Assembly (NCBI GenBank): GCA_034521515.1
Contig: JAXHMH010000002.1
Location: 216,379-280,378 of the forward strand
DNA length: 64,000 nt
From: Candidatus Saccharimonadota bacterium
GTDB lineage: Bacteria > Patescibacteriota > Saccharimonadia > Saccharimonadales > JAXHMH01
Reading direction: 5' to 3'
Shown here: piece after piece, positions 1-54,918 of the stretch
Position numbering within the stretch: the first letter of the stretch is position 1
How the letters are laid out: every line of letters begins with the position of its first letter
Position numbers and translations under genes: made by a program
Notes under the pieces: generated by a model
What the model was told of the DNA's origin: nothing
The model's database searches: none
What the model saw: the letters and a program-made list of their open reading frames with translations, nothing else

Positions 1-205
<205 letters not shown>

Positions 206-230
206 AAAATGTTGAGCTCACTGCGATACA

Positions 231-15548: not shown

Positions 15549-15649
15549 GTCAGCCCAGTAGTAGACTTTTGAGTTAGCGCGCTTTCGATGCAAACCTATT
15601 AGATTTCAGTTTTGCTGAAATCCTTCTCAAAAGCTCACTACTGGGTCAG
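15549..15649 (-). mobile_element. ~100-nt terminal-inverted-repeat hairpin element, copy 1 (MITE-like)
   Basis: GTCAG-CCCAGTAGTAGA...GCTCACTACTGGG-TCAG. The same termini are seen at 55974-56069. Flanked by TCAG/TCAG. Confidence 0.5.
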
Positions 15650-15675
15650 ATTATCTATAAGCCGGGTTCTGTTCA

Positions 15676-15742
15676 CCCCGCACCTTTTCGTGGCGACTTA
15701 TCAATCTGGTTGCAGACTGTTTCGCCCAGAAAAGGTGCGGGG
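15676..15742 (-). repeat. 66-67-nt hairpin module inside rnpB (P18 position)
   Basis: CCCCGCACC...CAGTCTG-CAAC-CAGATTG...GGTGCGGGG. Near-identical to 15915-15980. Confidence 0.75.
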
Positions 15743-15914
15743 GAGCCAATCATCTATCTAGCTCTAGGATTGTTCCTAGAATCGAGCGGATCTTATGATG
15801 CATCTTCGGCGGGGAACCGTATGAAGACACACCTCCTTGCAGCAGACAGGGTTTACCATTTTCCATCGTCACCGACAGGAACTGTGGGCTCTTACCCCAC
15901 TCGTTTCACCTTTA

Positions 15915-15980
15915 CCCCGCACCACTTCAAGGTGCTAAACAATCTGGTTGCAAACTGTATCGCCCTGAAGTGGTGCGGGG
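15915..15980 (-). repeat. 66-nt hairpin module inside rnpB (P8/P9 position)
   Basis: CCCCGCACC...CAGTTTG-CAAC-CAGATTG...GGTGCGGGG. Paralogue of 15676-15742. Confidence 0.75.
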
Positions 15981-16165
15981 TAGTTTCGTTTCTGTGGCAC
16001 TTTCCCTAGGGTTGCCCCCGGTCGCCGTTAGCGACTGTCTTCCCCTTCGCTGCCCGGACTTTCCTCCCCCTCACCAGCTTTCAGGAGAACAAGCCTTGGC
16101 TTGCTTCTGCCTGGAAAGTGGTGAGGGGGCGATCGGCCGATAGTCTGACCTTTTTATTATATCAT

Positions 16166-19957: not shown

Positions 19958-21175
19958 TTATGCAGGTGTTTTGTTCAAAAACGTTGTGACAATATCTACA
20001 CCAGAACTGGGGTCGTGTATCCAGTGAATACTTTTGTTACGCTTGAACCATGTGTTCTGCCGCTTGGCTAGTTGGAGGGTATCTTTTACGATTCTCATCT
20101 TGGTATCCGCCAAACTTTGGTTGTCGCAAAAGTACTCACGCCACTCCTGGTACCCAATTCCCTTCAGAGCCTCGCACTCCCAGCCGTATTTTTTGGACAA
20201 CTCCCTCACCTCTGGCTCAAGCCCTGCTTCAATCATCGCATCAACGCGGGCTGTTATTCTTTTTCGGAGCATTTCATGGGGCAATTTTACGCCAAGTATC
20301 AGCGTGTTCGATCGTATGTCGTGTCTTGTTGGTTTTGCACCGCCGGTCTCTAGCAGACGTATCAAGCGACGTTTATTTTGGGTGTCGATTCCATCAGTGT
20401 CTAAGCCTTTGGATTCTATGCGTCTTAGCAATTCCTTAAGGCTAAGAGCATTGAGCTCTTGCCGAGCCTCCCTGTCGCCTTCTGGTAAAAAGCCGTAGTC
20501 AAAAAGAACGCCATCTACATATAGCCCTGTACCGCCTACCATAATTGGCAGTTTACCCCTGGATCCTATGTCTTCAATAGCCTCGAGTGCTAAATCTTTA
20601 AACACTGCTGCAGTAAAGTCATCGCACGGATTCACAATATCTAGTAAGTGATGTTTGACTTGTGACTGCTCTTCTTGGCTTGGCTTGGCGGTACCAATGT
20701 TCACTTCTCGCCTCACAGTCCAGGAATCTGCTGCGATGATTTCGCCACCAAACTTCTTGGCGAGTTCAATAGCCAGCGCCGACTTACCGCTGGCAGTAGG
20801 CCCGACAATTACAACAAGTGGTAATTTGGAGGTTGGAGGTTGGAGGATGGAGGATGGATTTTTGCTATCTTGTTGCTTAGGTCTCCATAAAAGCCTTTCT
20901 ACATCCACCCGGTAATTTTCATCAACTGCAATACCCTCAGCTTCAAGCACCTGCTTATGCCCAGATTTGCCACCCGGATAACCATTGGCCAGACCGCCAC
21001 TCTTGTTGACCACCCGCTGCCATGGCAAATCCGGATTGCCAAAGTGCGCAATACCGCCGACAATCCTAGCTGCCCGGGCATTCCCAGCCAGTGCCGCAAT
21101 CTGCCCGTATGTCATCACCCGCCCTTTAGGAATCTCCGCAACAAGCGCCTCCACCCGCTCCTTGAAGTCAGACAC
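19958..21175 (-). CDS. miaA: Fusion ORF: alkyltransferase-like (ATL, Cys-less MGMT DNA-binding) domain + tRNA dimethylallyltransferase MiaA
   Basis: N-terminus IPKGRVMTYGQIAALAGNARAARIVGGIAHFGNPDLPWQRVV (PCHR replaced by PWQR). C-terminus VIVGPTASGKSALAIELAKKFGGEIIAADS... (MiaA P-loop). Likely GTG start at 21175 overlapping the upstream TGA; the track start is 21211. Confidence 0.8.
   Translation of the reverse strand: MSDFKERVEALVAEIPKGRVMTYGQIAALAGNARAARIVGGIAHFGNPDLPWQRVVNKSGGLANGYPGGKSGHKQVLEAEGIAVDENYRVDVERLLWRPKQQDSKNPSSILQPPTSKLPLVVIVGPTASGKSALAIELAKKFGGEIIAADSWTVRREVNIGTAKPSQEEQSQVKHHLLDIVNPCDDFTAAVFKDLALEAIEDIGSRGKLPIMVGGTGLYVDGVLFDYGFLPEGDREARQELNALSLKELLRRIESKGLDTDGIDTQNKRRLIRLLETGGAKPTRHDIRSNTLILGVKLPHEMLRKRITARVDAMIEAGLEPEVRELSKKYGWECEALKGIGYQEWREYFCDNQSLADTKMRIVKDTLQLAKRQNTWFKRNKSIHWIHDPSSGVDIVTTFLNKTPA
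20828..20862. repeat. Heptad array forming the ATL-MiaA linker
   Basis: GGAGGTT GGAGGTT GGAGGAT GGAGGAT GGATTTT. Encodes ...KNPSSILQPPTSKLP... on the minus strand and contains no stop triplet in the reading frame. Confidence 0.8.
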
Positions 21176-21770
21176 CGAAATACTCCGCCACTTCCTTCCA
21201 ATCGGCAACACGCTCTACGCCAGGATGAAGTTCTTTACCCCTGCTCCAACCCCAGTCACCAAATAACAAGGCTTTCACACCGACTTCTGCTGCCAAGTTA
21301 CAGTGCTCAGGGCTATCGTCTATAAGGTAGCCGGCACCTATCTCCTTGCAAATATGAGCTTTTGTAACCTTTCGGTCGGAATCGCTCCATAAACTTACAA
21401 AGTGAACATCGGCAAAGATGTCTGCAGCGTACTTCCCAAGCATCTGATTGGTAATATCCACGAACTCAGCAGTACGTGAAGTAACAATCTCAAGTTGATA
21501 TCGACTTTTTAGCTTCTCGAGTATGGCTACATCTTCTCGTAGGATCGACTGGTTCGCCTTATGGCTACTGGTCAAAAATTCCTTAAACAGAGTGTACGGA
21601 TCTTCGCCCGTGTCCCCCCACAGCCTTTCATAGTATCCCCAATAATCACCGGGCTTTTTGAAGTCGTCGTAGGTAAGGTTTAAGCCAATCCTCTCCTTTG
21701 AGAAAGCAATAATAGCGTCCACCTCCGAACATAAAACTTCGTCAGCATCTACTGCGATGATTTCTCTCAT
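21168..21770 (-). CDS. HAD-superfamily hydrolase, 5'(3')-deoxyribonucleotidase-like
   Basis: N-terminal AVDADEVL (DxDxV/T motif). 200 aa with an NT5C-like layout. Confidence 0.55.
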   Translation of the reverse strand: MREIIAVDADEVLCSEVDAIIAFSKERIGLNLTYDDFKKPGDYWGYYERLWGDTGEDPYTLFKEFLTSSHKANQSILREDVAILEKLKSRYQLEIVTSRTAEFVDITNQMLGKYAADIFADVHFVSLWSDSDRKVTKAHICKEIGAGYLIDDSPEHCNLAAEVGVKALLFGDWGWSRGKELHPGVERVADWKEVAEYFGV

Positions 21771-26014: not shown

Positions 26015-26043
26015 TTGACATGGTTTACGATGTTATGCATAAT
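26015..26043 (+). promoter_or_regulatory. Candidate nrdR promoter
   Basis: TTGACA (26015-20), 17-nt spacer, CATAAT (26038-43). The -35 lies within the inverted repeat ATGTCAA/TTGACAT. Confidence 0.4.
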
Positions 26044-26124
26044 TCTCAATTACCAATTTTCATCTATAAACTATTTAAAAATTTCCATCTTTCAGGTCTT
26101 TAAAAGGGTAAATGGAAATTAATT

Positions 26125-26173
26125 GGTAAATGGTAAATGACCGATGTTAAGTGCCAAATGCCCAATGTTAAAT
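26125..26173. repeat. Heptad array upstream of nrdR
   Basis: GGTAAAT GGTAAAT GACCGAT GTTAAGT GCCAAAT GCCCAAT GTTAAAT. Confidence 0.75.
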
Positions 26174-26190
26174 AAAGCTCTGGGGGTTAA

Positions 26191-26613
26191 ATGATTTGCA
26201 TCTATTGCTTAGGAGAAACTAGAGTTGTTAACTCGCGACATCAAAAACGGCCTAACACAGTCTGGCGTCGACGCCACTGCCAGCAATGCGGTACGGTTTT
26301 TACCTCAATTGAAGAGGCCGACCTGTCTGCCAGTATCGTTGTACGCAAACCAGAAGCTAAAACAAACGATTTAGAGCCGTTCTCACGAGATAAACTAATG
26401 CTGAGTATCTATGACAGCCTAAAGCACCGCAAAACCGCCCTGAAGGATGCTCAGAGCCTTACGCGCACTATTATTAACCAGATACACAACCATACTCATG
26501 AGGCTTGTGTTGATACTTACGTGATTGTCGAGGTTAGTCTTAAGGTTTTACAAAGGTTTGATAAGATAGCCGCCACGCATTATGCTGCCTTCCACCCAGA
26601 GAAGAGGGTGTAG
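26191..26613 (+). CDS. nrdR: Transcriptional repressor NrdR
   Basis: N-terminal zinc ribbon CIYCLGETRVVNSR...CQQCG followed by an ATP-cone-like region. 140 aa. Confidence 0.82.
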   Translation: MICIYCLGETRVVNSRHQKRPNTVWRRRHCQQCGTVFTSIEEADLSASIVVRKPEAKTNDLEPFSRDKLMLSIYDSLKHRKTALKDAQSLTRTIINQIHNHTHEACVDTYVIVEVSLKVLQRFDKIAATHYAAFHPEKRV

Positions 26614-26719
26614 GGTGAAGGGTGCAGGGTATAGGGTGTAGGGGCTAGATTTAGGAGCTTACTTATCACTAACACCTAGCCTATCTGTACTAGGTACTTT
26701 GTACTCCGCACTCACCTAG
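26601..26719. repeat. 17-unit heptad-phased array spanning the whole nrdR/GT2 convergent spacer
   Basis: GAAGAGG GTGTAGG GTGAAGG GTGCAGG GTATAGG GTGTAGG GGCTAGA TTTAGGA GCTTACT TATCACT AACACCT AGCCTAT CTGTACT AGGTACT TTGTACT CCGCACT CACCTAG. Confidence 0.85.
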
Positions 26720-28326
26720 GTGATTTTTTGTTTGTCGTCGCGTATTGTGGTTTTTTCAGTGACGTCAAACTTGCCGATATACCAACCAAACATCAACCTG
26801 GTCTGTGAATACAATGCCGCCATGGAATGATAAACGATAGTTGTTAGCGGCAGTAAAACCCACTGGGCTACCATAAAAATCGAGCGGTGCCGTTTATAGC
26901 GTTCGGGCTTTGGCGGCAATATCTTGAGGCTGAGTAACATAGCTATAAAAATTCCGACCATCGCAATAGTGTGTATTTGCCTGGTAATCATCGGTAGCTG
27001 GTTGGCAGCGAAATTATCAGGGTTAAGCAGTAACGGAATAAAGGCGGCAAACGCCAAAATTAATGGTGCGGTGGCCCAGCTAAGATGCCCTTCTAACAGG
27101 CGCAAAAATTTCTGGATCAAGTTCCAGCGCGGTATTTTGTTCTTGCGGAAGAAACCCATCTCTAGCACATAAGCAATGTCTGAGGCTCCCCACGCCCAGC
27201 GTCGTAATTGTATAAACTGTGCCTTGAGTGTTTTGACATAAGTCTTTGCCATAACAGCGTCTTGGTATACCGGCAGATAGATCGGATACACCTCGTGATT
27301 GCCGTCATAACGGAAGTAAGTGCGCCAAAATTGGTGGCCATCCTCTACGATTGTACGGACACTCCAGTAGTCAGTATCAATAAGTGTTTGCAGACTTTGC
27401 GCATGGCTAGAGAAGTTTCGTAACATGTGCGGCCGCAAGCTCAGTACAACATTCCAAAACGTATTTCCGGTTGCGATAATACGCATTGGTGCCGGTGCAT
27501 CCCAAATATTATTAGTAAACATCGGAATTGGTTGAAACGAAATATATAGCGGATCGGGTGTCACAGCATATACATAGCTAAGAGTGCTTAGATACTTTGG
27601 ATGTGGTCTGTTATCTGCATCTAACGTTGTCACAATTACATTAAGTGGGTCTAGCTTCTCTTGCCGTATATACTTCTCTAATTCACGTCCAGCAAAAGTG
27701 ATATTACCTCCCTTCCCGATAACTTCACCGGGTATATCCTTGGGATGTTTTACGGCAAAAGCATGCCTGAAATACTTTTTGTACTCTCGCATAAGTGATT
27801 CTGCCTGTTCTTCTACTTCAGAACCGCCGCGCTCTTCGTATGCCAGCACAAGGATAACTTGGCTTACATCATAATCTGAAGCCAGCACAGATTGGATGGT
27901 TGGCTCCAGCACGTCACGGCTTTCGTTATAAGTGGCGATGATAATGGCGTGAACAATCTCGTTGGGATCAATTGGGTTTGGCCGTTCCTGAATACGCTTA
28001 ACATTCTCGTAGTGCCACGCCGGGATCTGTTTATCTGGCTGGTCTACGCTGCCTCCACGTAGATCCTGTAACATCTGAGTCCACGGCAAAATCTGATGAC
28101 GTTTTAACGCTTTATAACCCTGTATGGAACGTACATTTAATCCTATTGCCTTAGCTAACCACATCAACAAATAAGCCAATACGAAAAACACTGTAATCGT
28201 TGGATTTATAAGACTCAAAACAAACGGAAGAGCCAGCACAGACCAAGTTAGTATCCCTGGCAGCATTTCAAGCAAACGATAACGTTTACCTCGCTCATGC
28301 ACATATGGAATCTCAAAATGTTTCAC
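26716..28326 (-). CDS. Family-2 glycosyltransferase, membrane-embedded processive type (cellulose/chitin-synthase-like)
   Basis: IIATYNE, TLDADN, QLRRWAWG (Q/RxxRW). N- and C-terminal TM helices. Confidence 0.75.
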   Translation of the reverse strand: MKHFEIPYVHERGKRYRLLEMLPGILTWSVLALPFVLSLINPTITVFFVLAYLLMWLAKAIGLNVRSIQGYKALKRHQILPWTQMLQDLRGGSVDQPDKQIPAWHYENVKRIQERPNPIDPNEIVHAIIIATYNESRDVLEPTIQSVLASDYDVSQVILVLAYEERGGSEVEEQAESLMREYKKYFRHAFAVKHPKDIPGEVIGKGGNITFAGRELEKYIRQEKLDPLNVIVTTLDADNRPHPKYLSTLSYVYAVTPDPLYISFQPIPMFTNNIWDAPAPMRIIATGNTFWNVVLSLRPHMLRNFSSHAQSLQTLIDTDYWSVRTIVEDGHQFWRTYFRYDGNHEVYPIYLPVYQDAVMAKTYVKTLKAQFIQLRRWAWGASDIAYVLEMGFFRKNKIPRWNLIQKFLRLLEGHLSWATAPLILAFAAFIPLLLNPDNFAANQLPMITRQIHTIAMVGIFIAMLLSLKILPPKPERYKRHRSIFMVAQWVLLPLTTIVYHSMAALYSQTRLMFGWYIGKFDVTEKTTIRDDKQKIT

Positions 28327-28688: not shown

Positions 28689-28694
28689 TTCGTA

Positions 28695-28778
28695 TAAGTG
28701 TAAAGCTAAACTTGAAAAGTTAAAAGTTATCTTAGAAGTAATTGAGTGGCGAGTGCTTAGCGACTAGTGCCTAGTGCG
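28695..28778. repeat. Heptad array (12 units)
   Basis: TAAGTGT AAAGCTA AACTTGA AAAGTTA AAAGTTA TCTTAGA AGTAATT GAGTGGC GAGTGCT TAGCGAC TAGTGCC TAGTGCG. Confidence 0.75.
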
Positions 28779-28784
28779 CCGGCT

Positions 28785-28862
28785 GGTTTACCATGAGCCT
28801 GTCGAATCGGTTTACCATGGCGTGCGTAGCGAGTCGAATGGTTCACCATGAGCTTGTCGAAT
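28785..28862 (-). repeat. Three tandem 23-31-nt repeats in the tRNA-Gly 3' trailer, each recreating the ACCA+TTCGAC junction
   Basis: Minus sense: ...GCACCA TTCGACAAGCTCATGGTGAACCA TTCGACTCGCTACGCACGCCATGGTAAACCG ATTCGACAGGCTCATGGTAAACCA. Confidence 0.7.
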
Positions 28863-31578: not shown

Positions 31579-31620
31579 AAGGATATTGTACTAGGTTTTT
31601 AGCTAGAGGTGGTAAAAGTA

Positions 31621-31662
31621 GTGGTTAGTGATTAGTGGATAGTGGTTAGTGAAGAGTGTGCT
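31621..31662. repeat. Heptad array (6 units)
   Basis: GTGGTTA GTGATTA GTGGATA GTGGTTA GTGAAGA GTGTGCT. The plus strand is C-free across ~55 nt. Confidence 0.8.
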
Positions 31663-39414: not shown

Positions 39415-39435
39415 ACAGAATCTCCGGTTTTACGA

Positions 39436-39463
39436 GTTGAAAGTTGAAAGTTGAAAGTTGAAA
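39436..39463. repeat. Perfect (GTTGAAA)x4 tandem heptamer between pilT and pilC
   Basis: gttgaaagttgaaagttgaaagttgaaa. On the mRNA strand this is (UUUCAAC)x4, 22 nt upstream of the pilC AUG. Partly complementary to the purine-rich words at 39480-39512. Confidence 0.95.
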
Positions 39464-39516
39464 GTACTCTGTTTTTTGCTTTATTAATCTTATAAACTTT
39501 TAACATTATACTTCCA

Positions 39517-49155: not shown

Positions 49156-50238
49156 ATGAGTCTTAATATCGCTATCGTGGGGCTGCCGAATGTTGGCAAG
49201 AGCACCCTGTTTAATGCGCTGACGGATAGCAGTATTTTGGCTGCTAACTATCCGTTTGCCACTATTGAACCGAACACTGGTATTGTGCCTGTGCCAGATG
49301 AGCGTCTGCAAAAACTGGCAGACATGTACAAGACTCAGAAGATACTGCCTGCGACGGTTACTTTTGTCGATATAGCCGGGCTAGTCGCAGGCGCCAGCAA
49401 AGGCGAGGGTTTAGGTAACCAATTCTTGAGCCATATCCGCAGCTGCAACGCCATCTGTCAAGTGGTTAGGGCGTTTGATGATTTAAACGTTTTGCGCAAC
49501 GAGTCCAGTAAGGATCCGCTGCACGATATAGAAGTGGTTAACACAGAGCTGATATTGGCAGACTTGCAAACCATAGAAAAACGCCTACCCCAAACTGAAA
49601 AAGCGGCTCGAGCGAATCCAAAACTTAAACCCGAATTTGAAGCATTAAAAACTGCACACGATATACTCGACTCCGGTCAGCCACTTTTTCACAGTACTGA
49701 GTACTCAGTACTAAGTACGGAGCTCAAGGATCTGCAGCTCATGACAGCCAAGCCAATTATTTATTTGTTTAATATGGATGAGGACCAGCTTAATAATGAG
49801 ACCAAAAAACAAGAACTAAGTAAATTAGTGTCCCCTGCTCAAGCAATTTTTGTCAGCGCCAAGCTAGAAGATGAACTGCGCGGTCTTGATAGATCTGACC
49901 GGCAAGAAATGTTGGAAAGTTACGGCCAGACTGAGCCAGGATTACACAAAGTTATACACGCTGCCTACGATGTACTGGGATTGCAGAGTTACCTGACGGC
50001 GGGCGAAAAAGAGGTTCGTGCCTGGACTATCAAAAAAGGTTCGACAGCTCCCCAAGCAGCCGGCGTGATTCATGGTGATTTTGAACGTGGCTTCATCGCG
50101 GCACAAATTATTGATTATGATGACCTTGTGGCTGCCGGTTCAGAAGCTGCAGCTAAACAACAAGGGAAAATCCGCACTGAAGGCAAAACCTACGTTATGC
50201 AACCCGGGGATGTCGTTGAGTTCAAGTTTAACGTGTAA
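49156..50238 (+). CDS. ychF: Ribosome-binding ATPase YchF
   Basis: IVGLPNVGKSTLFNALT, DIAGLV, C-terminal TGS-like domain (GDVVEFKFNV). Confidence 0.93.
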   Translation: MSLNIAIVGLPNVGKSTLFNALTDSSILAANYPFATIEPNTGIVPVPDERLQKLADMYKTQKILPATVTFVDIAGLVAGASKGEGLGNQFLSHIRSCNAICQVVRAFDDLNVLRNESSKDPLHDIEVVNTELILADLQTIEKRLPQTEKAARANPKLKPEFEALKTAHDILDSGQPLFHSTEYSVLSTELKDLQLMTAKPIIYLFNMDEDQLNNETKKQELSKLVSPAQAIFVSAKLEDELRGLDRSDRQEMLESYGQTEPGLHKVIHAAYDVLGLQSYLTAGEKEVRAWTIKKGSTAPQAAGVIHGDFERGFIAAQIIDYDDLVAAGSEAAAKQQGKIRTEGKTYVMQPGDVVEFKFNV

Positions 50239-54336: not shown

Positions 54337-54346
54337 AGTAGTAACT

Positions 54347-54367
54347 AGATTCTAGATCTAAGATTCT
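54347..54367. repeat. Heptad array (3 units)
   Basis: GATTCTA GATCTAA GATTCTA, directly upstream of the efp start. Confidence 0.65.
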
Positions 54368-54562
54368 AGCGACCCCTTTCTTTATTAGCTTTCCTTAATC
54401 CTGATAGCACTTTAGCGCATTCCACCGAAAGATCTGCTACTTCTTTAAAGTCTTCTTGGGTAATGTAGTGGAGATCCTTAACAATGAGCAGTTGGTTTTG
54501 GAGCTCTAGCAAAGACCCGTATGCCATGCTTTTAGGTCTGTAAAAGACGTAATCGTACTCAT
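54367..54562 (-). pseudogene. Decayed relic of a four-helix-bundle (23S rRNA intervening-sequence protein family) gene
   Basis: Frame A: MSTITSFTDLKAWHTGLC* (family N-terminus F.DL.AW). Frame C: ...LELQNQLLIVKDLHYITQEDFKEVADLSVECAKVLSGLRKANKERGR* (family C-terminus). The middle ~70 aa are missing and the two pieces are out of frame. Confidence 0.4.
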
Positions 54563-54575
54563 TGCCTTATTGCTA

Positions 54576-54610
54576 GAATCTACAATCTTATATCTATCCT
54601 CTAATTAGAT
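54576..54610. repeat. Heptad array overlapping the rpsR stop
   Basis: GAATCTA CAATCTT ATATCTA TCCTCTA ATTAGAT. Confidence 0.65.
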
Positions 54611-54804
54611 GCTACAAACGGTAGCAATGCTAGATGCCGAGCGCGCTTAATAGCAACCGCTAATCGGCGCTGTTCATGCTCTTTGAGACCGGTTTTCTTA
54701 CGAGTCTCGATCTGACCATACTGGTTTACGTATCGCTGCAAGGTCTTAAAGTCCTTGTAGTCAAAATACGGTACGTCTGTTCTGTTCTTGAAAATCTTAG
54801 CCAT
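54601..54804 (-). CDS. rpsR: 30S ribosomal protein S18
   Basis: 67 aa, [28 protein letters not shown]...[19 protein letters not shown]. Confidence 0.92.
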
Positions 54805-54820
54805 GTAAATTCCTCCGGAA

Positions 54821-54904
54821 TTAAGTTTAAGGTTATAAAGTTGAAAGTATAAAGTAGTACTCCTGTGAGAAACTTGTTACTTTATAAACTTTTTTACTTT
54901 TTAC
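54821..54904. repeat. Heptad-word imperfect hairpin filling the ssb-rpsR spacer
   Basis: TTAAGTT TAAGGTT ATAAAGT TGAAAGT ATAAAGT ... TTACTTT ATAAACT TTTTTAC TTTTTAC. The two arms are complementary, and the words nearly match the 16S V1 insert. Confidence 0.75.
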
Positions 54905-54918
54905 TTGTTCTAGCTGTG

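Follow-up and report, generated by a model that had tools for sequence, protein, structure and literature searches.

The 64,000-nt stretch of contig JAXHMH010000002.1 from a Candidatus Saccharimonadota bacterium (assembly GCA_034521515.1, positions 216,379 to 280,378), referred to below as the window, contains a series of tandem arrays with a 7-nt unit, one pair of which occupies the spacer between the convergent genes for an NrdR-like protein and a protein weakly similar to family 2 glycosyltransferases (GT2-like). We interpret these arrays, with a probability of roughly 0.7, as heptanucleotide simple-sequence repeats (SSRs) born by slippage, of the type of the long SSRs of Mrazek 2007 and of the short tandemly repeated repetitive (STRR) sequences of cyanobacteria. 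The phylum and the words are new, the kind of element is already known, and no new mechanism is needed for the arrays; they represent a new example and not a new kind of element because the repeat class is known from Xanthomonas and cyanobacteria. An initial annotation of this DNA had placed the arrays in no known repeat family, but heptanucleotide long SSRs have already been described and the G-rich inverted pair of the spacer fits the architecture of the Xanthomonas GGGAATC repeats (PMC4692102).

The sequence quoted for 26601-26719 was verified letter for letter. Identity between positions 7 nt apart (lag-7 identity) is 0.54 over this region, the best value at any other lag is 0.34, and none of 5000 shuffles reaches the observed value. 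The period is 7, as had been stated, but the supposed unbroken register of 17 units resolves into two arrays, 26601-26656 (lag-7 identity 0.67) and 26657-26719 (0.48). The middle of the spacer, 26644-26684, has a lag-7 identity of 0.38, which is marginal (p=0.05), and the common phase of the two arrays has a 1-in-7 likelihood by chance. The array edges lie where they were first placed: the G-rich array begins in the final codons of the NrdR-like gene, the stop codon of which (TAG, 26611-26613) falls in the second unit, and its partner adjoins the GT2-like stop codon (CTA, 26716-26718). The partner array is degenerate, inverted, and partly complementary to the G-rich array, and reads on the - strand, which is the GT2-like sense strand. 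The region 26606-26644 has six tracts of three or more G residues and is the sole canonical G-quadruplex (G4) motif (G3+ N1-7, x4) on either strand of the window, with its first G-run starting 3 nt ahead of the NrdR-like stop codon. When this region is taken alone, an energy model that includes quadruplexes gives a quadruplex at -12.7 versus -1.8 kcal/mol. In the + strand RNA the two arrays are predicted to form a long imperfect hairpin to which G-U pairs contribute (Table 1); the - strand RNA of the spacer folds much less well, with a minimum free energy (MFE) of -30.5 kcal/mol (z=-0.64). The GT2-like stop codon lies within a perfect 12-nt palindrome, TCACCTAGGTGA (26712-26730 region), after which the + strand reads TTTTTT. 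This T6 run (26725-26730) is 8 nt past the predicted long stem, inside the GT2-like coding region, where it corresponds to C-terminal Lys codons.

The same period dominates the repeats of the whole window. Tandem Repeats Finder (TRF) returned 37 rows, 16 of which have period 7, compared with an average of 1.17 (about 14-fold fewer) in 30 block-shuffled windows. A strict lag scan over lags 4 to 22, in which 17 or more of 21 positions had to match at the lag in question, identified five segments at lag 7, four at lag 14, one at lag 21, and no segment at any remaining lag in the window. With looser thresholds lag 7 is still the top lag, and 10 of its 16 segments in the window are intergenic. Pooled intergenic DNA of the window, set against 300 dinucleotide shuffles, bears out the proposed periodicity, lag 7 reaching z=3.2 and lag 14 z=5.3; this is the control for which the initial annotation had called, applied here to one window. 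Because of these 14- and 21-nt superperiods, and the higher score of lag 14 relative to lag 7, the arrays appear to grow partly in blocks of several units. A second assembly of the same organism, consisting of five Logan contigs from run SRR26473340, covers 22.6 kb of the window, including the arrays at 20826, 26103-26716, 28702-28779, 31618, and 54337-54906. It differs from the window by eight single-nucleotide polymorphisms and no indels, and none of the differences is within an array; the arrays are not an assembly artifact.

The arrays are less widespread and less uniform than the initial annotation had described. They do not fill the spacers throughout but occur in 7 of the 35 spacers of at least 30 nt, comprising 515 of 8271 intergenic nt (6%), and the intergenic share of the window is itself 13%. 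Seven of the nine other loci that had been listed are significant (p<0.005: 43-112, 20828-20862, 26125-26173, 28695-28778, 31621-31662, 39436-39463, and 54821-54904), but 54347-54367 (p=0.013) and 54576-54610 (p=0.046) are weak and were chosen post hoc. One strand is nearly free of C in 26601-26656 (4% C) and at 20828, 31621, and 39436 (0-2% C), but C makes up 10-20% of the remaining listed loci and 18% of the target span of 119 nt as a whole. A strand rule fits six of seven arrays in the window but was rejected for the clade, where G is less frequent than C in 10 arrays and more frequent in 11. The words are mostly specific to their loci, as claimed, with the exception of AAAGTNN/NNACTTT, which is present at five places, and AGTACNN, which is present at two. 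Several arrays away from the target are not free of gaps (9-21% indels in TRF). None of 512 intergenic pentamers tested is enriched above z=3.4, and AAAGT/ACTTT is outside the top 15.

The target junction was compared with loci from 160 relatives (2.04 Mb in total, labelled L001 upward). Relatives of the GT2-like protein in genome and metagenome collections belong almost entirely to Candidatus Saccharibacteria or Saccharimonadales, the best having 71% amino-acid identity. About 75 of the first 80 loci retain the convergent order of the NrdR-like and GT2-like genes, with a spacer that is mostly 0-30 nt long; that of the window is 102 nt. Comparison of the orthologous spacers, which the initial annotation had proposed as a check on the conservation of phase or words, shows that the words differ: the arrays have from 0 to 18 units, and the heptadic spacers at this junction carry lineage-specific words (L008, L004, L064, L066, and L090). 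In L008 (11579-11870), the locus with 71% GT2 identity, the spacer is 249 nt long and contains (CAGGTAG)n followed by (CTGTTAT)17, with a lag-7 identity of 0.62; its inverted pair is predicted to fold into a hairpin, each arm of which is about 115 nt long (-111.9 kcal/mol, z=-6.3). In L090 (2512-2711), the GT2-like stop codon is followed at a distance of about 100 nt by a perfect (AAACTAC)13 array, which faces a degenerate (TAGTNNN)4 array and looks like a recent expansion of one arm.

Among the relatives as a whole, the strict scan identified 18 lag-7 and 17 lag-14 segments; every other lag has eight or fewer, the next highest being multiples of 3. The density in the window, five segments per 64 kb, compares with a clade mean of 0.57 per 64 kb (Poisson p ~4e-4). 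Pooled Saccharibacteria intergenic DNA has no diffuse lag-7 excess in a test for which genes were called crudely and the null was imperfect. Because there is no diffuse excess and the density in the window is high, the signal consists of discrete arrays that are found in certain genomes only and are unusually dense in this one. When arrays of at least 2.9 copies from the window and the relatives are taken together, 39 of 51 are intergenic. An inverted partner is present within 200 nt in 14 of 49 arrays (about 30%), compared with 4 for reversed and 6 for complemented control words. Several arrays are located 5-70 nt upstream of start codons.

Arrays of this type are also found within genes. The 16S rRNA gene (window 1-207, - strand) has a 116-nt insertion in helix 6 (V1), at about 25-130, where the Rfam model has 16 nt, and most of this insertion is a hairpin built of heptads. 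The array at 20819-20862 has no stop codon on the sense strand and encodes an in-frame linker, PSSILQPPTSKL, that joins an MGMT-type DNA-binding domain to MiaA, as indicated by translation and Pfam. The fused open reading frame (ORF) comprises 19958-21211 (- strand), and the independent assembly likewise calls a single gene of 405 aa with PF01035 and PF01715; no standard start codon is present just ahead of the MiaA P-loop in the fused ORF. In most relatives ogt-like and miaA are separate genes in different frames, with an overlap or a gap of 3-15 nt between them. The junction is expanded to 40-140 nt in 11 relatives, 5 of which are heptadic at p<=0.002, and the words differ (TTCCAAC, CCCCAAY, ATGGAAG with its inverse, CAACTCT, and others). 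A heptad array likewise fuses ogt-like and miaA in L037 and L054. L103 and L108 also have an in-frame fusion of the two genes, and their junction is without significant 7-nt periodicity.

Slippage had been among the origins left open by the initial annotation, and it is the one to which these comparisons point: the arrays grade from perfect to decayed, the words of orthologs differ, and spacers that were ancestrally tiny have been enlarged. The gradient of apparent age extends from the perfect (AAACTAC)13 of L090 and the (AGTTGAA)4 of the window down to arrays with about 70% identity. Because relatives have other words at junctions that are usually 0-30 nt long, birth by slippage followed by decay is indicated. 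Replication slippage would duplicate a 7-nt word, and loops of that length presumably go uncorrected by mismatch repair. The array may then grow in steps of 7, 14, or 21 nt and decay by point mutation, and would persist wherever additional bases are tolerated, as in spacers, a variable 16S helix, or an inter-domain linker. The inverted pairs probably arise by hairpin-templated (quasi-palindrome) copying or by selection for a stem, two routes that are not separable here. In the target, a convergent spacer with an ancestral length near zero would have reached 102 nt through (AGGGTGN)6 and its degenerate inverted partner, a pair that could adopt an imperfect hairpin of about 45 bp or a G4. If this pair is functional at all, it may plausibly be a barrier or a 3'-end structure between the convergent NrdR-like and GT2-like transcripts.

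Several observations weigh against an origin by slippage and decay alone. No variation in copy number was seen, the sole other assembly being identical in each array that it covers, and because of this identity active slippage is inferred here from the relatives and not observed; exact-protein look-ups for nearer strains returned SRR26473340 alone, and scans of genomes and metagenomes returned nothing above 71% amino-acid identity. An element comprising (CTTTNNA)4 and TAnACT at 28689-28735 (- strand), which is overlapped by the first of the arrays at 28702-28779, is conserved at orthologous sites in L001, L002, L003, L009, L016, L017, L021, L037, L066, L090, and L095, and therefore not every array is junk. 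Variation is concentrated at two of the seven unit positions in L008 (p=0.003) and, with borderline significance, at 31619-31660 (p=0.05). Such position-focused variation is not predicted by pure neutral decay; block duplication could yield the pattern, and the remaining arrays are too short for core conservation to be significant as a sign of selection. Stop triplets in the arrays exceed the number expected from composition (85 versus 64.8 +/- 5.5 in shuffles). The target hairpin is equaled by 12 of 200 shuffles (z=-1.75), and a terminator scan of 26614-26715 identified no terminator-like site with a U-tract. Finally, the reason for a unit of 7 nt is unexplained.

A different reading is that the arrays are selected structural cis-elements, for which slippage supplies only the building material, and that the inverted pairs act as hairpins or G4s that terminate or insulate convergent transcription or guard 3' ends in the manner of repetitive extragenic palindromic (REP) sequences; we regard this as rather unlikely. 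It would account for the presence of an inverted heptad pair at one convergent junction in the window, L008, and L090, for the excess of inverted partners (14 of 49 versus 4-6 controls), and for the location of the window's sole G4 motif at a stop codon, and in Xanthomonas the type of repeat, single or inverted pair, is mostly kept between species (PMC4692102). RNA structure modules, as suggested in the initial annotation, or structure in the DNA are supported for a subset, with the L008 hairpin (z=-6.3) and the 16S insertion (z=-3.4) as examples, but the target hairpin is marginal, the fold of the pair between ssb and rpsR is no better than random (z=-0.25), and single arrays (31615, 39429, and 28702) lack structure. 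The target spacer also has no U-tract terminator, and most relatives have a spacer of 0-30 nt, so that the element is evidently dispensable. Two related candidates were rejected: the hairpin as a general property of arrays, which fails for single arrays in fold tests, and an intrinsic (Rho-independent) terminator, because no U-tract directly follows a G+C-rich stem-loop in the spacer. The wider proposal that heptad slippage is a recurrent maker of functional modules, which in this reduced CPR genome would include bidirectional hairpin or G4 barriers at convergent junctions with an ancestral length of 0-30 nt, the extension of 16S helix 6 by about 100 nt, the linker that fuses an alkyltransferase-like domain to MiaA, and unstructured or promoter-like leaders, among them the conserved (CTTTNNA)4 element, appears improbable. 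In that proposal the AAAGT/ACTTT words shared by the 16S insertion and several mRNA leaders could mediate pairing between rRNA and mRNA in place of a Shine-Dalgarno interaction.

HutP reads UAG-N4 repeats, and by analogy the arrays might be platforms for a multimeric nucleic-acid-binding protein that recognizes one short motif per 7 nt. TAG-N4 phasing is present in 31619-31653 (five TAGTGNN units), in 28757-28777, and in part of the target array, the variation within units is focused on positions 6 and 7, and several arrays precede start codons by 5-70 nt, like the TAACTGA repeats of Beggiatoaceae, for which regulators of the S1, Csp, or CsrA type have been proposed (PMC4679880). However, the words change by locus, no intergenic pentamer is enriched, arrays of the clade have no consistent strand with respect to the genes beside them, the TAG-N4 units at 31619 lie antisense to the two neighboring genes, and no candidate protein was identified, which makes a binding platform very unlikely. 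The initial annotation had also suggested that the arrays are stop buffers that close all frames and shield tightly packed genes against translational read-through. The density of stop triplets is about 1.5 times as high in the arrays as in other intergenic DNA (0.090 versus 0.061 per position), and no reading frame of either strand stays open across the target spacer, but only 7 of its 17 units carry a stop on the + strand and 6 do so on the - strand, and not most of them, as had been stated. The enrichment is partly a matter of ascertainment because stop-free arrays are annotated as coding. The array at 20819-20862, without a sense stop, joins two genes, as do those of L037 and L054; the arrays close one of three sense frames at 39425-39475 and two of three at 31615-31661; and the relatives cope with junctions that overlap or have 0-15 nt. 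A stop buffer is, in our judgment, scarcely credible. We attach a similarly negligible weight to chance, assembly artifact, or dispersed copies of a mobile element resembling a miniature inverted-repeat transposable element or REP sequence. The arrays are short and degenerate and lie in AT-rich spacers, and those at 54347-54367 and 54576-54610 are weak, but the strict scan is empty at lags that are not multiples of 7, period-7 rows in TRF are 14-fold above shuffles, and the independent assembly is identical over the arrays that it covers. A mobile element was rejected, since similar copies of the target spacer were found neither in the window nor in the 2 Mb of relatives.

Table 1. Genes, heptad arrays, and predicted structures in the window (for arrays, units are given as read on the strand indicated)
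Feature	Position	Strand	Basis
NrdR-like gene, 140 aa	26191-26613	+	Pfam threshold reached for N-terminal zinc ribbon only
Weakly GT2-like gene	26716-28326	-	Two Pfam hits, both below gathering scores
G-rich array AGGGTGT AGGGTGA AGGGTGC AGGGTAT AGGGTGT AGGGGCT	26605-26646	+	TRF 26605-26643: period 7, 5.6 copies, 84% matches
Partner array AGTGCGG AGTACAA AGTACCT AGTACAG ATAGGCT AGGTGTT AGTGATA AGTAAGC	26657-26716	-	Lag-7 identity 0.48, p=0.0004; lag-scan segment 26684-26716
Predicted long imperfect hairpin of both target arrays	26606-26717	+ (RNA)	MFE -44.1 kcal/mol, z=-1.75
Heptad-built hairpin (AAAGTNN)n / (NNACTTT)n, most of 16S insertion	44-106	-	z=-3.36; TRF 45-71, 78-99
CCATCCT CCATCCT CCAACCT CCAACCT CCAAATT (sense)	20819-20862	-	TRF 96% matches
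Degenerate array, AAATGGT / TGCCAAA type	26103-26173	+	TRF 26103-26139; 26125-26173 lag-7 identity 0.62, p<0.0002
AAAGCTA AACTTGA AAAGTTA AAAGTTA	28702-28729	+	TRF 28715-28729; lag scan
AGTGCTT AGCGACT AGTGCCT AGTGCGC	28750-28779	+	TRF 28752-28777; lag scan
TAGTGGT TAGTGAT TAGTGGA TAGTGGT TAGTGAA GAGTG (2% C)	31615-31661	+	TRF 4.7 copies, score 52; strict lag scan
Perfect (AGTTGAA)4	39429-39469	+	TRF 4.4 copies, 100% matches
CAGTACT GAGTACT CAGTACT AAGTACG, period 7 and 14, inside ORF	49690-49722	+	TRF; strict lag scan
Inverted pair of degenerate AAAGTNN / NNACTTT arrays, ssb/rpsR gap	54821-54906	-	Lag-7 p=0.0046
Weak array CTAGATT CTAGAT CTAAGAT, upstream of efp	54337-54369	+	TRF score 34, 20% indels; p=0.013

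The other arrays of the window are located in a variety of settings (Table 1). The degenerate array ahead of the NrdR-like gene ends 18 nt before its start codon (26191) and is downstream of a promoter-like site at 26015-26043 (TTGACA-17-CATAAT, 11 of 12 matches in a promoter scan). The arrays at 28702-28779 lie between the tRNA-Gly gene and the start of a gene for a 115-aa membrane protein, both on the - strand. The (CTTTNNA)4 element described above is in the leader of this conserved 115-aa gene and starts directly after the CCA end of tRNA-Gly in several relatives. Its TAnACT sequence is invariant and located 8-12 nt before the ATG; more distant relatives have TATAAT or TACAAT at the same distance, and, judged from its sequence, TAnACT resembles a -10 box, from which an mRNA with a very short leader or none would be made. 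A 41-nt direct repeat (28767-28807 and 28822-28862, 80% identity, 55 nt apart) is just downstream of tRNA-Gly on the - strand, with its second copy adjoining the tRNA-Gly 3' end; by eye it includes part of the AGTGCNT heptad array together with three units that resemble GGTTTACCATG...TCGAAT. The array at 31615-31661 separates tRNA-Arg from a bPH-domain gene, each encoded on the - strand, and its sense-strand RNA is free of G and predicted to be unstructured (MFE -1.5 kcal/mol). The perfect array at 39429-39469 is between two type IV pilus genes on the - strand, which Pfam assigns to the T2SSE-family ATPase and T2SSF families. The array at 49690-49722 is inside an ORF that we take to be YchF-like; in a hand alignment with Escherichia coli YchF, the array presumably adds no length. 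Heptads or 14-mers with the AGTAC core of 26684-26716 and 49690-49722 are also present in L015 (12859-12929), L027 (13397-13424), and L029 (12591-12619), at non-orthologous loci and as an inverted pair in L015; AGTACT is itself palindromic. The pair in the ssb/rpsR gap has the topology of a single stem-loop and is no stabler than shuffles.

The window comprises the 5' end of the 16S rRNA gene, RNase P RNA, six tRNAs, and densely packed genes that are mostly on the - strand. The Pfam search returned no ATP-cone in the NrdR-like protein. The RNase P RNA (class A, 15642-16148, - strand) is 507 nt long, compared with a model of 367 positions, and has three hairpin-like insertions of about 40, 46, and 55 nt, located in the P3 loop, in a central helix, and near the 3' end; TRF identified no heptad periodicity in them. 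A 53-aa ORF (54366-54527, - strand) is located within the 582-nt gap between efp and rpsR, and because of it this spacer may be coding in part. In the gene call of the independent assembly, the efp start is 14 codons downstream of the start of the longest ORF.

Heptanucleotide repeats have been known for nearly two decades as the dominant long SSRs of many bacteria, although the number seven has no agreed explanation and no role has been established. With the present arrays the phenomenon reaches the Saccharibacteria, episymbionts whose genomes are so small that extra bases are conspicuous. Because gene order is common to about 160 relatives, the birth, word turnover, and decay of arrays are directly observable at fixed junctions. 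The consequences are concrete: a spacer of near-zero length becomes one of 102 nt, a 16S helix gains about 100 nt, and two genes are fused. In practical terms the gain is modest; the arrays might be used to tell strains apart, and because a stop-free array merges neighboring genes, caution is warranted for gene callers.

Comparison with known repeat systems supports placement among the heptanucleotide repeats. In enterobacteria, REP sequences and bacterial interspersed mosaic elements (BIMEs) are imperfect palindromes in spacers, including those of convergent pairs and gaps within operons, and are possible stabilizers of RNA 3' ends. The present arrays resemble them as imperfect palindromes between genes but differ in having a 7-nt periodicity and no common consensus, whereas REP/BIME sequences have one consensus in hundreds of copies. 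A CRISPR array was rejected, since the units are contiguous and 7 nt long, compared with repeats of 24-47 nt split by unique spacers. The STRR sequences of cyanobacteria, reportedly described by Mazel et al. in 1990, are said to be heptanucleotides with the words CCCCAGT, TTGGTCA, and CAACAGT. They are similar to the arrays here in that tandem heptanucleotides are dispersed in non-coding DNA with several words per genome, but they are high-copy families of few words in heterocystous cyanobacteria, and no tandem of the three words, in any rotation, is present in the window. One STRR case, in Calothrix PCC 7601, is mentioned in PMC4692102.

In the survey of Mrazek, Guo & Shah (2007), as recounted in PMC4679880 and PMC4692102, heptanucleotides are the most abundant class of long SSRs (units of 5-11 nt) in most bacterial genomes, and an origin by slippage, with a link to the DNA segment held by the polymerase, has been proposed. 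The long SSRs of the survey agree with the present arrays in the tandem 7-nt units beyond chance, the intergenic excess, the sporadic phylogeny, the words particular to each locus, and the proposal of slippage. Head-to-tail units beyond chance and a preference for non-coding DNA, two marks of a long SSR, are both found here. The survey is older than the genomes of the candidate phyla radiation (CPR), and many of the arrays here are degenerate (70-85% matches) instead of perfect. The literature searched contains no report that links heptamers to Saccharibacteria. TAACTGA direct repeats, described from marine Beggiatoaceae, some Cyanobacteria, and Bacteroidetes (MacGregor 2015, PMC4679880), are likewise intergenic heptamers in 2-6 copies, many of them just before start codons, and translational regulation has been proposed for them; they have one fixed word in 169 sets, in contrast to the locus-varying words here, and no TAACTGA tandem is present in the window.

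The target spacer is most readily compared with the mostly intergenic GGGAATC repeats of Xanthomonas (heterogeneous, GGGANTN) and GGGGA(C/T)T repeats of Nostoc PCC 7120 described by Rehm et al. in 2015 (PMC4692102). In Xanthomonas about 185 repeat patterns are present per genome, and in 70-75 cases two sites on opposite strands make up an inverted pair. Between species these repeats differ in length but stay at the same site and of the same type; they are transcribed, and in vitro they adopt G4s (PMC4692102). Neither GGGAATC nor GGGGAYT tandems are present in the 64-kb window. The word of the target is AGGGTGN and its partner has diverged to AGTACNN or NCACY units, the organism is a member of the Saccharibacteria (CPR) with a small genome, and, in contrast to the approximately 185 copies of one word in Xanthomonas, the 64 kb available contain one G-rich array next to many words that are not G-rich. 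Repeats of the Xanthomonas/Nostoc type have one word at about 90-190 sites of a genome. The target nevertheless shares with these repeats a 7-nt unit with a fixed G-tract and a variable loop, in which at least four intact units constitute a G4 motif (predicted in the present case), and the arrays of the window and its relatives share with them a mainly intergenic location, inverted stem-loop pairs, sites between convergent genes, and variation of length and sequence while the site stays the same.

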